This document shows positions 22,313 to 43,695 of a stretch of DNA of 52,962 nt, piece by piece. Source of the DNA: an uncultured Bacilli bacterium (GTDB lineage: Bacteria > Bacillota_I > Bacilli_A > RF39 > UBA660); the NCBI GenBank assembly GCA_944372055.1, contig CALVYF010000006.1:1-52962 (forward strand), given 5' to 3'. Made by a program: the position numbers and the translations under genes. The notes beneath the pieces are model-generated. The model made no database searches, had not been told where the DNA came from, and saw only the letters and a list, made by a program, of their open reading frames with translations. Each line of letters opens with the position of its first letter. Within the stretch, counting starts at the first letter, position 1.

Positions 22313-23263
22313 ATGATAGATATCAGTATTATTGTACCAATATATAATGCCGAGAGATATTTAAATAGATGTATAAAATCATTAATTAATCAAACAAAAG
22401 AAAACATAGAATTCATTTTAGTAAATGATGGATCAACAGACTCCTCTGAGGAAATAATAAAAAGTTATAAAGATAAAAGAATCAAATACTTTAAAAATAA
22501 AAATCAAGGTATTGGAAAAACTAGAAATTTTGGGATGAAAAAAGCAACAGGAAAATATATTATGTTCTTAGACAGTGATGATTATCTAGCAACCAATGCA
22601 TGTGAAGAATTATTTAATAAAGCAGAAAAAGATAACTTAGACTTAGTAATAAATAATTTTTATAGAGTAGAAGAAGAAACAGAAAAGAAAGTTGAAGTAA
22701 TTATTCCAGAATTTAAGAATACTACTTTAAAAGAAAATAAAAGGTTATTACTAGATGTTAACTTGGCCCCATGGAATAAACTATATAAAAGTGAGCTTCT
22801 AAAGGAAAATAAAATACAGTTTGTAGAAGATTTAAAATATGAAGATGCTCCATTTGTAGTAGAAGCTATGGATAAAGCTAAAAAAATAGGCTACATAAAA
22901 AAATTCTTAAATTATTATGTAATCCATAAAAATAGTGAAACAACAGTTAGAGATGAAAAAATATTTGATATTATAGAAATTGTTGATAAAATGAGAAAGT
23001 ATTTTTCTAAAAGAAAAGAATTCACAGAAACTGTGGATAAACTATCTGTAAGAATACTAACTAACTATACAATCCAACAAAGAGTGCAACAGGACAAAGA
23101 AGTAGGAATGCAATTTATTGATAGAGCTTTCCAATATATGAAAGAAAACATATCAGATTATAAAGATAACAAATATTATGAAAATAGAGGCTTTTTGCGA
23201 AGAACGATTGAAAAAAATCAATTCTTAACAAAGGTTTATTGCAAACATTACAAAAGCAGATAA
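22313..23263 (+). CDS. GT2 family glycosyltransferase
   Basis: SIIVPIYN, VNDGSTD, RNFG, FLDSDD, PWNKLY, YED. Confidence 0.93.
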   Translation: MIDISIIVPIYNAERYLNRCIKSLINQTKENIEFILVNDGSTDSSEEIIKSYKDKRIKYFKNKNQGIGKTRNFGMKKATGKYIMFLDSDDYLATNACEELFNKAEKDNLDLVINNFYRVEEETEKKVEVIIPEFKNTTLKENKRLLLDVNLAPWNKLYKSELLKENKIQFVEDLKYEDAPFVVEAMDKAKKIGYIKKFLNYYVIHKNSETTVRDEKIFDIIEIVDKMRKYFSKRKEFTETVDKLSVRILTNYTIQQRVQQDKEVGMQFIDRAFQYMKENISDYKDNKYYENRGFLRRTIEKNQFLTKVYCKHYKSR

Positions 23264-40798: not shown

Positions 40799-41593
40799 AT
40801 GGCAAAAGAAAATAAAAAAGAAAAACGTCAATTAAAAATTAATATTGTTGTATATTTAGTACTAAGATTTTTAGTAATCGTATGTATGGTAGAGCAATCT
40901 TTAAAAGGGAACTGGCATAGTGTGGCACTATGTTTTCTAACATTAATATTGTTTACTCTACCAACAATTGCATCAAAAACTTTTAAAGTAAAATTACCAA
41001 CGACACTAGAAATTATCATTTATTTATTTATCTTTGGAGCAGAAATACTAGGAGAAATTCAAAACTTTTATGGAGTATTTAAACACTGGGATACTATGTT
41101 ACATACACTAAATGGTTTTCTATCAGCAGCAATTGGATTCTCACTAATCGATATTTTAAATAGAACAGAAAGATTTCATATCAAGATGACACCATTATTC
41201 GTAGCGCTAGTAGCTTTTTGTTTTTCTATGACAATCGGAGTATTATGGGAATTCTTTGAATTCACTGCAGATCGCTATTTTAATACGGACATGCAAAAAG
41301 ATAGAATTGTAGAAAAAATACAATCAGTAGAATTAAATAAAGAGAATAAGAATGATCCACTTATCATAGACGATATTAATAAAACCATTATCTATAGTGA
41401 TAACAATAAAAAAACGACAATTGAAGGTGGGTATTTAGATATAGGTATTATTGATACTATGAAAGATTTAATAGTCAATTTTATTGGTGCACTAGTGTTT
41501 TCCATTTTAGGTTTTTTATATATTAAAGACCGTGATGAATATAAGTTCATTGAAAGATTCTTACCAGTAATGAAGAAATTTAAAGAAGAATAG
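40799..41593 (+). CDS. Conserved integral membrane protein (DUF2238-like motifs)
   Basis: LGE...FY...WD.MLH, WEFFEF..D, DTMKDL..N..GA. Confidence 0.75.
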   Translation: MAKENKKEKRQLKINIVVYLVLRFLVIVCMVEQSLKGNWHSVALCFLTLILFTLPTIASKTFKVKLPTTLEIIIYLFIFGAEILGEIQNFYGVFKHWDTMLHTLNGFLSAAIGFSLIDILNRTERFHIKMTPLFVALVAFCFSMTIGVLWEFFEFTADRYFNTDMQKDRIVEKIQSVELNKENKNDPLIIDDINKTIIYSDNNKKTTIEGGYLDIGIIDTMKDLIVNFIGALVFSILGFLYIKDRDEYKFIERFLPVMKKFKEE

Positions 41594-41610
41594 CCTAGGG
41601 TTATTTTTTT

Positions 41611-41660
41611 TTGAAATTTTTAAGGAAGACTCCTACTTTTTTCGAATAATAAAGTAGGAG
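41611..41660 (+). promoter_or_regulatory. Putative promoter overlapped by a perfect 10-bp inverted repeat that includes the SD
   Basis: TTGAAA (41611-41616), 17 nt, TACTTT (41634-41639); CTCCTACTTT (41630-41639) / AAAGTAGGAG (41651-41660). Confidence 0.65.
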
Positions 41661-41668
41661 GTGAAATT

Positions 41669-42565
41669 ATTAAAAAATTTTATACATGCCGCTATGATAG
41701 AGCATTTAAAGAAGTATTCATGAACGAATCAAACAAAGACTTGTTAATTTATTTATTAGAAGGAATTCTAAAACTAAAAATAAATAACGTGGAATATCTC
41801 AATTTAGAACAAAATGTAGGAAATATCTACGTAAAAAGAAAACACTTCGATTTATTTTTAAAAACAGATATTGGAAATATCCAAGTAGAAGTAAATGCTT
41901 CTAATCTAAATTATGTAAAACCAAGAAATATGTCTTATATATGTGCAATATATTCTAACCATGTATTAAAAGGACAAAATTATAATCAAGATACTAAGAT
42001 TATACAAATTAATTTTAGTTATGGACTAGAAGATTCAGAAGAGAAAAGAGTATATTATGTACAAGATCAAAGTAATAAAAAATATGTGGAAAATTTTACC
42101 ATTTATGAAATCAATATGGAAAAATATATAAACTATTGGTATACTAAAAACAAAGAAAAAATAGAAGAAAATAAAGAAATAATTATGCTAGATTTAGAAT
42201 TAGAAGAATTAAAGCTTCTGTCAAAAGAAGATAGGATGGTGAAAAAATATATGAGTGAAATGGAAAAAATCAATAGTAATCCTGAATTTTTTGAATATAT
42301 GAGCGCAGAAGAAGATAATCGAAAGATAGAAAATTCTATTAGAAGAGAAATGATAGAAAGAGGATTAAAAGAGGGTTTAGAGCAAGGACTAGAGCAAGGT
42401 CTGGAACAAGGTCTGGAACAAGGTCTAGAGCAAGGTTTAGAGCGAGGACTAGAACAAGCAAAAATTGATATTGCTCATAATATGCTAAAAGATGGATTAG
42501 ATATTGTTACAATAGCTAAGTATACTGGTTTAGCTAAAGAAACAATCCAAGAAATGTCCAAATAG
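41669..42565 (+). CDS. Rpn family recombination-promoting nuclease / PD-(D/E)XK putative transposase, probable ATT start (41666 or 41669)
   Basis: SD AGGAGGTG (41656-41663) followed by in-frame ATT ATT AAA AAA TTT...; family N-terminal motif YDRAFKEVF lies upstream of the first ATG (41720); FD.....IQVEVN, (GLEQ)n, IAHNML..G...I...TGL. Confidence 0.85.
   Translation: MKKFYTCRYDRAFKEVFMNESNKDLLIYLLEGILKLKINNVEYLNLEQNVGNIYVKRKHFDLFLKTDIGNIQVEVNASNLNYVKPRNMSYICAIYSNHVLKGQNYNQDTKIIQINFSYGLEDSEEKRVYYVQDQSNKKYVENFTIYEINMEKYINYWYTKNKEKIEENKEIIMLDLELEELKLLSKEDRMVKKYMSEMEKINSNPEFFEYMSAEEDNRKIENSIRREMIERGLKEGLEQGLEQGLEQGLEQGLEQGLERGLEQAKIDIAHNMLKDGLDIVTIAKYTGLAKETIQEMSK
42362..42457 (+). repeat. Eight 12-nt repeats encoding (GLEQ)-type tetrapeptides
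   Basis: GGN YTR GAR CAA units; typical Rpn C-terminal variable repeat. Confidence 0.92.
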
Positions 42566-42579
42566 TGATAAAAGAGATT

Positions 42580-42616
42580 AAAAAAATAAAGTAAAATAAG
42601 CTTACTTTATTTTTTT
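42580..42616 (+). terminator. Intrinsic terminator after the Rpn gene
   Basis: AAAAAAATAAAGTAA-aataagc-TTACTTTATTTTTTT. Confidence 0.65.
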
Positions 42617-42658
42617 GTCGATTTTTGTCATACGAAACATTTGTCATGTTTTGTCGAA
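42616..42658 (+). promoter_or_regulatory. Two pairs of tandem Spo0A boxes upstream of the spoIIA-like operon
   Basis: TGTCGAT (42616), TGTCATA (42626), TGTCATG (42642), TGTCGAA (42652, perfect 0A box), each preceded by TT; spacing 10/16/10. Confidence 0.78.
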
Positions 42659-42709
42659 ATGCTAGAAAATATTTTCTATTTGTTTTATAGTGCAAATAGA
42701 GGTGAAGAC

Positions 42710-43048
42710 ATGCTAACAGTATCACGACAAGTAAACAGAGGAATCATATTTATTAGATTGGAGGGAGAACTAACTGCAAATAACTTCTATAAAGTGGCAG
42801 AAGAAATTAACTATTTATTATATAACCAAGGAATTTTAGTTTATGTATTTAACTTAGAAGACGTAAATAAAATAGATAAAGGCATATTGGAAAGTATTCA
42901 AAATAAGTTAACAGAAATCTTTTTAAAATGTGGTAGTGTTGCTATCTGTGGTATATCAACAAAATTAAGAAAAATGTTAGGAGAAAGAAAAAACGAATTA
43001 TTTTATGTAACAGAAGAAAAAGAAGTATTTCAATATATTAGTATTTAA
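42710..43048 (+). CDS. spoIIAA: SpoIIAA-like STAS protein (anti-sigma-F antagonist homologue), phospho-serine motif degenerate
   Basis: ATG 42710 after GAGGTGA; IRLEGELT...FNLEDVNKIDKGI; directly upstream of sigF. Confidence 0.75.
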   Translation: MLTVSRQVNRGIIFIRLEGELTANNFYKVAEEINYLLYNQGILVYVFNLEDVNKIDKGILESIQNKLTEIFLKCGSVAICGISTKLRKMLGERKNELFYVTEEKEVFQYISI

Positions 43049-43059
43049 AAGGAGAGAAT

Positions 43060-43695
43060 ATGGACAGCATATTGGAATATGAAGATATGATTTATAAAAT
43101 GATTGGTAGATACCGAAACTTTGATAAAGAAGACCTATATCAAGTAGCGATGCTTGGTTTAATGAATGCTAAAAAAAATTATAATCCAAATGAAAATACA
43201 AAGTTTTCAACTTATGCTTATTATTATATTTTAGGAGAAATTAATGCTTATATTAGAGCAAGTAATCCTGTAAAGATAAGTAGAGACCTTCTTCGACTGA
43301 ACAAAAGCTTAGAGCATGCAAAAGAAGTGATGGCACAAAGATTAAAAAGGGAACCAACAACAGAAGAGCTATCTATCTTTTTAGAAGTTCCCATAGAAAA
43401 AATAGAAGAAGCAACACTTGCAACTAGACAGGTAGAGAGTCTAGATTACACCTATAGTGATGAAGAAAGTGATTTATATAATTCTTTTGGACAAGAAGAA
43501 ACACAAATGACCGAAGACTTCTTAGATCTAAAAGATGCCATAAAAAATCTCCCAAGAGAAGAACAACAGTTAATTATTGCGAGATATTATACGGGACTAA
43601 CACAACAAGAAACAAGCGAGTCTCTAGGAATATCTCAAGTACAAGTATCAAGAAAAGAATCAAAAATATTACAAAAGCTAAAGACAACTCTATAA
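43060..43695 (+). CDS. sigF: Forespore sigma factor F, N-terminally shortened (211 aa)
   Basis: EDLYQV...GL...KFSTYA...I.GEI...VKISR, REPT..EL, RYY...TQ.E....LGISQVQVSR (QVQ is SigF-type; SigG has QAQ); spoIIAA and spoVA context. Confidence 0.85.
   Translation: MDSILEYEDMIYKMIGRYRNFDKEDLYQVAMLGLMNAKKNYNPNENTKFSTYAYYYILGEINAYIRASNPVKISRDLLRLNKSLEHAKEVMAQRLKREPTTEELSIFLEVPIEKIEEATLATRQVESLDYTYSDEESDLYNSFGQEETQMTEDFLDLKDAIKNLPREEQQLIIARYYTGLTQQETSESLGISQVQVSRKESKILQKLKTTL

Follow-up and report, generated by a model that had tools for sequence, protein, structure and literature searches.

An AUU start codon and a Shine-Dalgarno-sequestering hairpin as probable brakes on an Rpn-family nuclease of an uncultured Bacilli bacterium

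In the Rpn systems the long form (RpnL) is a toxic endonuclease and a separately translated short C-terminal form (RpnS) is the antitoxin, and the cause of the differing RpnL and RpnS levels is stated to be not known in the parts of the study that bear on the present comparison (Zhong et al. 2023, PMC10400941). Here we analyse an rpn gene within a window of 52,962 nucleotides (nt), which is the whole stretch of DNA studied (positions 1 to 52,962 of the forward strand of contig CALVYF010000006.1, NCBI GenBank assembly GCA_944372055.1), from an uncultured Bacilli bacterium. We consider it probable that this gene encodes the toxic long form of an Rpn toxin with an intragenic antitoxin, that an AUU start at position 41669 together with a hairpin formed over the Shine-Dalgarno (SD) sequence throttles its translation and that the antitoxin is made internally. 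At the level of sequence, comparison among related copies demonstrates where the start codon lies and that it is conserved, that the codons 5' of the first ATG are constrained as coding sequence, that the hairpin recurs and that the repeats vary between strains.

The transposases of IS10, through fold-back inhibition, and of IS50 are protected from outside transcription by leader structure. Secondary structure of the mRNA has also been described for IS200 and structure of the 5' untranslated region for ISPpu9 (excerpts of PMC8450116), and the rpn leader resembles the leaders of these elements in that an inverted repeat can cover, by base pairing, the ribosome-binding site for an enzyme that cuts DNA and may harm the cell. 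Among genes with near-cognate starts, infC and pcnB of Escherichia coli have non-canonical start codons, and AUU, AUC and AUA starts in this bacterium give 0.1-3% of AUG (10.1101/063800), whereas infC (AUA), cvfC1 (AUU) and ccpN (AUA) of Staphylococcus aureus carry extended SDs and reach ~10% of AUG reporter expression (PMC13009471). The ebpA gene of Enterococcus faecalis starts at ATT and was annotated wrongly at a downstream ATG (PMC4447247). As far as the portions of these reports used here go, the rpn gene shares with this group a near-cognate codon properly spaced behind an extended SD and conserved in relatives, mis-annotation at a downstream ATG (as in ebpA) and an expected attenuation of expression; it differs in that a toxin-type nuclease would be a new class of gene with such a start, that ATC is the commonest codon and that the SD concerned can also be sequestered by a hairpin. 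Taken singly, the elements have precedents, both the AUU or AUA start with an extended SD and the SD-sequestering leader of transposases; in the open-access papers and preprints searched we found no report linking Rpn to a non-canonical start.

Translated from the ATT at 41669, the product matched the Pfam family PDDEXK_2 (PF12784) with 61.1 bits (cut-off 27.4, 1.7e-16) over profile positions 3-214 and the NCBIfam model TIGR01784 ([quoted passage not shown]) with 62.4 bits (cut-off 52.1, 6e-17). Both scores lie above the curated cut-offs, in agreement with the assignment to the Rpn family made in an earlier note on this DNA, and by domain match the gene would encode a full-length PD-(D/E)XK nuclease, the long form of which is presumably toxic. 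The same note had placed the N-terminal motif of the family upstream of the first ATG, and this was borne out by the profile: translated from the ATG at 41720, the product gives only 46.9 bits with PDDEXK_2 and the match begins at profile position 13, the region upstream contributing 14.2 bits and profile positions 3-12. The C-terminus gave a weak match to the solved RpnA C-terminal chain 7th0_A (E = 0.69, residues 258-295) and weak matches to Pfam families of the helix-turn-helix (HTH) type. In relatives at 66-97% identity the reading frames are intact and the repeat variation looks functional. Two related copies, L039 and L041, have frames cut at 72 codons and weak leader hairpins, and are possibly decaying.

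The frame is closed upstream by TAA at 41621-41623, which holds under any code altering TGA alone, and has no in-frame ATG, GTG or TTG before the ATG at 41720. On this point, as on every letter that it described, the earlier note was found to be accurate. The SD, read as AGGAGGTG at 41656-41663 and extended to AGGAGGTGA by one further nucleotide, is followed by in-frame ATT codons at 41666 and 41669; its complementarity was taken from the general bacterial consensus, as the 16S 3' end was not found in this assembly. Related 5' ends were gathered from one-per-species genomes, metagenome contigs and genomes reached via those loci, and a covariance model of the leader yielded 43 instances in the collected sequences, 32 of them distinct. 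The SD is degenerate in five of these (L034, L038, L039, L046 and L053). The codon homologous to 41669 is ATC in 22 distinct leaders, ATT in seven and ATG only in L034 and L053, while in L046 an ATT sits one codon before the homologous position. The spacing between GGAGG and the homologous codon is 7 or 8 nt in every case. The proposal of an ATT start behind a strong SD was thus upheld by ATT or ATC in 29 of the 32 distinct leaders, with the start corrected to the second ATT, 41669.

The choice between the two ATT codons follows from their variation. Five conspecific metagenome contigs with 97% protein identity read ACT ATT at 41666-41671, a contig from an RNA library (X16) carries T>C at 41667, which likewise makes the first ATT an ACT, and among 24 leaders the codon homologous to 41666 is GTT, ATT, AGT, AAT or ACT. 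The first ATT was therefore ruled out as the start, and the alignment supports 41669 as the putative initiation codon and 41666 as a probable spacer. A whole-stretch contig of run X4, from a different study, is identical to the window at ATT ATT; this contig, the five conspecific contigs and the related leaders rule out an assembly error or a recent inactivating mutation at the ATT, the two possibilities that the earlier note had named as refuting its reading. AUU or AUC is probably the codon used for initiation.

Downstream of the start, 13 of the 15 residues encoded by codons 3-17 (K-F-Y-T-C-R-Y-D-R-A/T-F-K-E-V-F) are unchanged throughout the 24 leaders compared from the ATT/ATC clade, and the third bases vary, with four codons used for Thr, four for Val and three for Arg. 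This almost exclusively synonymous variation indicates that the region is translated in this frame. It bears directly on the alternative that translation begins at the ATG 41720, with the upstream motif a relic or the gene a start-loss pseudogene. That ATG is the choice of standard gene callers, 28 of the 120 best database cluster representatives begin at this internal Met or 3 residues later, and PDDEXK_2 is still found in the shorter product. No SD precedes 41720, however, the 15 codons upstream of it are under purifying selection, the upstream part adds to the domain match and the frames of relatives are intact, and we regard a start at 41720 as highly improbable. A further 14 of the 120 best representatives begin at the GTG inside the SD, so that mis-annotation of the start is systematic among the relatives of rpn.

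The GTG inside the SD requires separate consideration. Leader groups differ by 1 nt between the SD and the conserved ATY codon, and the GTG is therefore in frame only in the ATC group, in which it is the sole canonical start codon upstream; in the window, L033, L047 and L052 it falls in another frame. L033, L052 and L046 likewise have no canonical start before the conserved coding sequence, and more distant ATG-start relatives (L042, L053 and L008) match the register, reading M-x-K-F-Y. As the start of the ATC group the GTG was rejected on inferred spacing only, because no spacer would be left between it and the SD. We also rejected a small upstream frame from GTG 41661 to TGA 41721-41723, coupled to the ATG 41720 via ATGA, since this overlap follows automatically from Met-Asn (ATG AAY), the GTG belongs to the main frame in the ATC group and the codon variation fits the main frame.

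The arms of the hairpin form a perfect 10-bp inverted repeat, listed in the repeat scan as I3 (13 nt, 92%). The hairpin folds with -13.2 kcal/mol (z = -3.59), none of 200 shuffles being as stable, and stands in the top 1.4% among the 278 SD regions of its own genome. Across the 32 distinct leaders 86.6% of the cells of this helix are paired, compared with 83.3 +/- 0.8 in column shuffles (none of 500 reached the observed value) and with 43-67% after a shift of the partner by 1-3 columns; in a MAFFT alignment of 27 leaders the proportion is 85.6%. In a 48-nt frame 19 of the 27 leaders fold with -9.8 kcal/mol or less, which corresponds to about the top 7% of the 278 SD regions in the genome of the window, and in four leaders the helix is extended to 12 bp and covers GGAGGT. 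A search for known RNA families gave a best Rfam match at E = 0.25, far below the gathering score. Variation in the arms is mostly C/U in the left arm facing an invariant G of the SD, a change that keeps the RNA pair and breaks the DNA dyad, and RNA structure is for this reason favoured over a DNA operator. We infer that the hairpin reduces translation, probably as a second brake that is not universal.

The earlier note had also offered the palindrome as an autoregulatory operator, and a broader form of this alternative holds that the inverted repeat is the DNA operator of an autoregulator, for example one with an HTH-like C-terminal domain, or that its loop is the minus-strand -10 of an antisense RNA acting on the leader. 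A minus-strand promoter-like site is indeed widespread, 23 of the 27 distinct leaders having it with at least 8/12 consensus positions and 20 with 9/12, and the invariant loop letters A36, A39, T40 and A41 of alignment A1 read TATNNT on the minus strand; such a site would give an antisense RNA starting at the left arm. The C-terminus has its weak HTH-type matches, and for IS10, IS200 and ISPpu9 the relevant passages of PMC8450116 describe antisense RNAs that control transposase translation or stimulate it. The operator is nevertheless disfavoured by the C/T differences opposite the invariant G, which break the symmetry of the DNA and leave RNA pairing intact. As for the antisense RNA, TATNNT is common in DNA of 29% G+C, the same letters could equally serve as a plus-strand -10, and the leaders, being homologous, do not count as independent cases. 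Taken as a whole, this explanation is in our view very unlikely.

Several observations weigh against a weak start combined with an SD hairpin. Because the 32 leaders are mutually related and derive from roughly a dozen assemblies, the counts overstate their independence, and the ATT/ATC state may go back to one ancestral change. In the 22 ATC leaders gene callers pick the in-frame GTG two codons 5' of the start. Most distant Rpn paralogues in the bacterial family start with ATG, GTG or TTG, and the weak start is thus not a family requirement. Seven of the 27 leaders form only a weak hairpin (-1.5 to -5.6 kcal/mol), and five of these front intact or apparently intact genes, the other two being the cut frames of L039 and L041. 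RNAalifold on the MAFFT alignment did not return this helix and gave another structure with near-zero energy; in a 65-nt fold 54 of 278 background genes of this T-rich genome pair their SD at least equally, and C-to-T drift in a T-rich leader could mimic conservation by wobble pairing. The SD-sequestering hairpin put forward in the earlier note is supported in part, by its recurrence in about 19 of 27 leaders with wobble-compatible changes.

A second proposal concerned transcription. In the model of the earlier note the gene's own promoter, with its -10 in the left arm, starts transcripts within the hairpin loop and leaves the SD free, whereas read-through transcripts fold and are blocked in the manner of IS10 and IS50. 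The geometry fits the window, where transcription beginning some 7 nt past 41639 would start in the loop and the SD region of an RNA with its 5' end at 41646 is not significantly folded (-5.0 kcal/mol, z = -0.09). A terminator-like hairpin and T-run stand before every leader, and the X16 contig (41484-41763) spans the end of the upstream gene, the entire hairpin and the 5' end of rpn; hairpin-containing RNA may thus exist, and a second RNA-library contig (X18) ends at 41611, a weak hint, with the reservation that such contigs show no 5' ends and prove no transcription, since DNA may be present in the libraries. An alternative plus-strand -10 in the loop (AATAAT or AATGAT), paired with TGGAAA as the -35, would have the same consequence and matches 8/12 positions in 8 of the 27 leaders.

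The hexamers themselves argue otherwise. TTGAAA and TACTTT are present at a spacing of 17 nt, as had been described, but they match only 8 of 12 consensus positions, below the scan threshold of 9/12, and the equivalent arrangement occurs in two of the 27 distinct leaders only, those of the window and the conspecific L076; at that spacing it is absent from the other 25. The TTGAAA falls in a short stretch that is missing from the syntenic relative L033. At 9/12 no plus-strand promoter-like site was listed in the leaders of the window or four relatives, and the 13 sites found in the region are at chance level (10.0 +/- 2.9 in shuffles). The comparison with IS10 and IS50 is further limited by these hexamers, which lie inside the repeat in so few leaders and at 8/12, and by the ends of the conserved unit. 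In two paralogues of one genome (L031 and L032) identity extends from 53 nt 5' of the pre-start codon to a point within the 3' part of the gene, and no flanks are shared; as this identity includes 53 nt of leader, the leader travels with the gene. The identity shows no ends like those of an insertion sequence (IS), and in this one informative pair we found no transposable element with defined ends, a further difference from IS10, IS50, IS200 and ISPpu9. We regard the model of transcripts that start in the loop and escape the hairpin as unlikely.

The interpretation that we favour, a long form held down by its start codon and hairpin, also has to account for the antitoxin. An internal promoter-like site is found in all 17 full-length relatives, in 16 of them at 9/12 with the TG extension. 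Its -10 persists across residue changes, W-Y-T, W-Y-S and W-Y-N being encoded with TATACT, TATAGT and TACAAT, and the Thr codon within it is ACT in 12 of 12 cases, whereas the N-terminal Thr uses all four codons. These features make 42117-42145 a candidate promoter of a short antitoxin form. Further downstream the codon at 42236-42238 is ATG in 14, GTG in two and TTG in one of 17 relatives despite the residue change among M, V and L. The rare codons AGG and GTG that flank it are kept (the usual codons are AGA and GTA) and together form AGGATGGTGA, and all 17 relatives have the in-frame ATG at 42251. An RNA-library contig (X15) covers 42223-42700 only, its end at 42223 being a weak hint, as are the stretches that no such contig covers. 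The putative promoter and start would correspond to the internal signals described for E. coli rpn genes (PMC10400941) and may be active.

The repeat array downstream is variable. Compared with the window, five conspecific contigs (L076-L079 and L082) have two copies fewer, the X4 contig has one fewer and an X15 contig two fewer, and the number and sequence of the repeats also vary among wider relatives. The entire C-terminal module occurs as an in-frame tandem duplication in L042 and L045. Set beside RpnL/RpnS of E. coli (RpnA-E) and of the plasmid-borne RpnP2, within the passages of PMC10400941 on which this comparison draws, the locus has the same PD-(D/E)XK nuclease family assignment, a C-terminal helix of 4-residue repeats that vary between strains (the hypervariable helix), a possibly HTH-like C-terminal tail and an internal promoter-like site with a candidate in-frame start 5' of the repeats. 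It differs in its family models, PDDEXK_2 and TIGR01784, in contrast to Transposase_31 (PF04754) for E. coli RpnA (part of PMC5350276), and in the distance of the candidate internal ATG from the repeats, which is ~38-43 residues here and 8-20 in PMC10400941. The weak start and the SD hairpin are further differences, neither being described for the long form in those passages.

In the mechanism that we consider probable, translation of the long form would start at AUU 41669, 7 nt behind the extended SD, and the near-cognate codon would set a low ceiling on toxin synthesis. The 10-bp hairpin would pair the anti-SD (CUCCU...) with the SD and lower initiation in any transcript that includes the left arm. 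The short form would be made separately from the internal promoter-like site, probably with a canonical start at 42236 or 42251, and with a promoter-like site and a canonical start of its own the antitoxin would so exceed the toxin. A variant would make the weak AUU/AUC start, beyond its role as a brake, the trigger of a defence system, in which lowered activity of initiation factor 3 (IF3) or shut-off of host transcription, as in phage takeover, flips the toxin:antitoxin ratio. IF3 rejects non-canonical starts, and the antitoxin would have its own promoter and a canonical start; upon such an insult the existing mRNA would initiate more of the long form while the supply of antitoxin stops, and the nuclease would become active. 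The threshold for this switch would be set by the hairpin and perhaps also by an antisense RNA transcribed from the minus-strand loop site. We hold a role as trigger to be quite unlikely.

To see how far weak starts extend beyond this gene, the genome was scanned for exact GGAGG sites with a start codon 4-10 nt downstream that opens a frame of at least 100 codons. There are 280 such sites preceding ATG, GTG or TTG. Of the sites followed by ATT, ATC or ATA all but four lie inside longer frames, and two of these four are near a canonical start, leaving rpn and infC as the only candidates. In infC of the same genome (G000 contig C15, ~22871-22890; L075 1470-1488) the sequence GGAGGTG-TTA-ATT-ATA has the architecture of the rpn leader, with in-frame ATG and GTG overlapping the SD; infC is the classical gene with a start of this kind. 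A genome-wide habit of ATT or ATA starts was accordingly rejected for GGAGG-type sites, which were the scope of the scan.

Among 19 family loci with an N-terminus, 14 have canonical starts, two are clearly without one (L003 and L012, with ATA behind an SD), L004 and L006 probably have ATA and L027 is ambiguous. A further 40 5' regions included six without a match; of the remaining 34, about 31 were judged by eye to carry an ordinary SD with ATG, GTG or TTG. A weak start shared generally by Rpn paralogues was rejected; the trait is specific to clades and recurrent, and given the ATA starts of L003 and L012 (and the probable ones of L004 and L006) the device seems to have evolved repeatedly within the Rpn family. 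At the syntenic locus the start is ATT in the window and L033, and ATG in L034. In the ATG-start relatives L002, L043-L045 and L074 a remnant resembling the hairpin (CTTCTTTTGC ... GCAAAGGGAG) is found about 40 nt 5' of the ATG, and a new SD and ATG lie on a stretch inserted 3' of this remnant, which suggests a lineage that replaced the weak start. As regards linkage of hairpin and weak start, SD pairing is mixed among 10 ATG-start relatives, with no clear pattern of compensation.

The source genome comprises 1.35 Mb in 63 contigs with 29% G+C, and the rpn gene is single-copy in it; relatives of the gene come from uncultured Bacilli and Mycoplasmatota of gut samples. With the leader model (R1), a match was found only in the window's own genome across 151 one-per-genus genomes of the bacterial family, and five related genomes carry 2-6 leader copies each. 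Many of the leader copies L141-L160 and L050-L062 lie within ~250 nt of contig ends, the gene body evidently acting as a repeat at which assemblies break. No close relative was found in the viral contigs searched for phage carriage. The terminator-like hairpin at the end of the upstream gene (41586-41616) folds with -6.7 kcal/mol, and 10 of 200 shuffles fold equally well; each related leader is preceded by its own, different hairpin and T-run, and in all copies the conserved part of the leader begins at GGAA immediately 3' of this variable element. On the 5' side rpn is neighboured by a gene of the diacylglycerol-kinase type and a membrane-protein gene of 264 codons without a Pfam match, and on the 3' side (42641-43695, plus strand) by genes for a STAS-domain protein of the anti-sigma-factor-antagonist type and then a sigma-70-family factor of 211 residues. 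The features of the locus are collected in Table 1.

Table 1. Features of the rpn locus, with positions counted from the first nucleotide of the window.
Feature	Position	Strand	Description
Upstream gene 3' end	41591..41612	+	TAG 41591-41593, short terminator-like hairpin (TAGCC/GGTTA), nine T
Promoter-like hexamers	41611..41639	+	TTGAAA 41611-41616, 17 nt, TACTTT 41634-41639
Hairpin	41630..41661	+	Anti-SD left arm 41630-41639, loop 41640-41651 (12 nt), right arm 41652-41661
Minus-strand promoter-like site	41646-41673	-	-10 is the reverse complement of the loop (TATNNT); -35 overlaps the ATT start
Extended SD AGGAGGTGA	41656..41664	+	Common to 27/32 distinct leaders
First ATT	41666..41668	+	Variable; not the start, most likely 5' untranslated spacer
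Proposed initiation codon ATT	41669..41671	+	7 nt after GGAGG
Full-length Rpn (RpnL-type) frame	41669..42565	+	298 codons and TAG stop; Pfam and NCBIfam matches
First canonical ATG	41720..41722	+	Start chosen by gene callers; read as internal Met codon
Internal promoter-like site	42117..42145	+	TGGAAA, 17 nt, TG-extended TATACT
Candidate internal translation start region	42233..42253	+	SD-like AGGATGGTGA 42233-42242; start-type codon 42236-42238; ATG 42251-42253
12-nt repeat array (4-residue, GLEQ-type)	42374..42458	+	7.1 copies

The locus exposes a systematic error in annotation, by which database representatives of the family are cut near the internal Met or begun at the GTG inside the SD. 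Within the open-access literature searched, the combination of a near-cognate start and an SD hairpin on an Rpn toxin, conserved in about thirty copies, is apparently new. The locus and its roughly thirty related copies would offer, for one clade, a concrete and testable answer to the question of what sets the levels of RpnL and RpnS.

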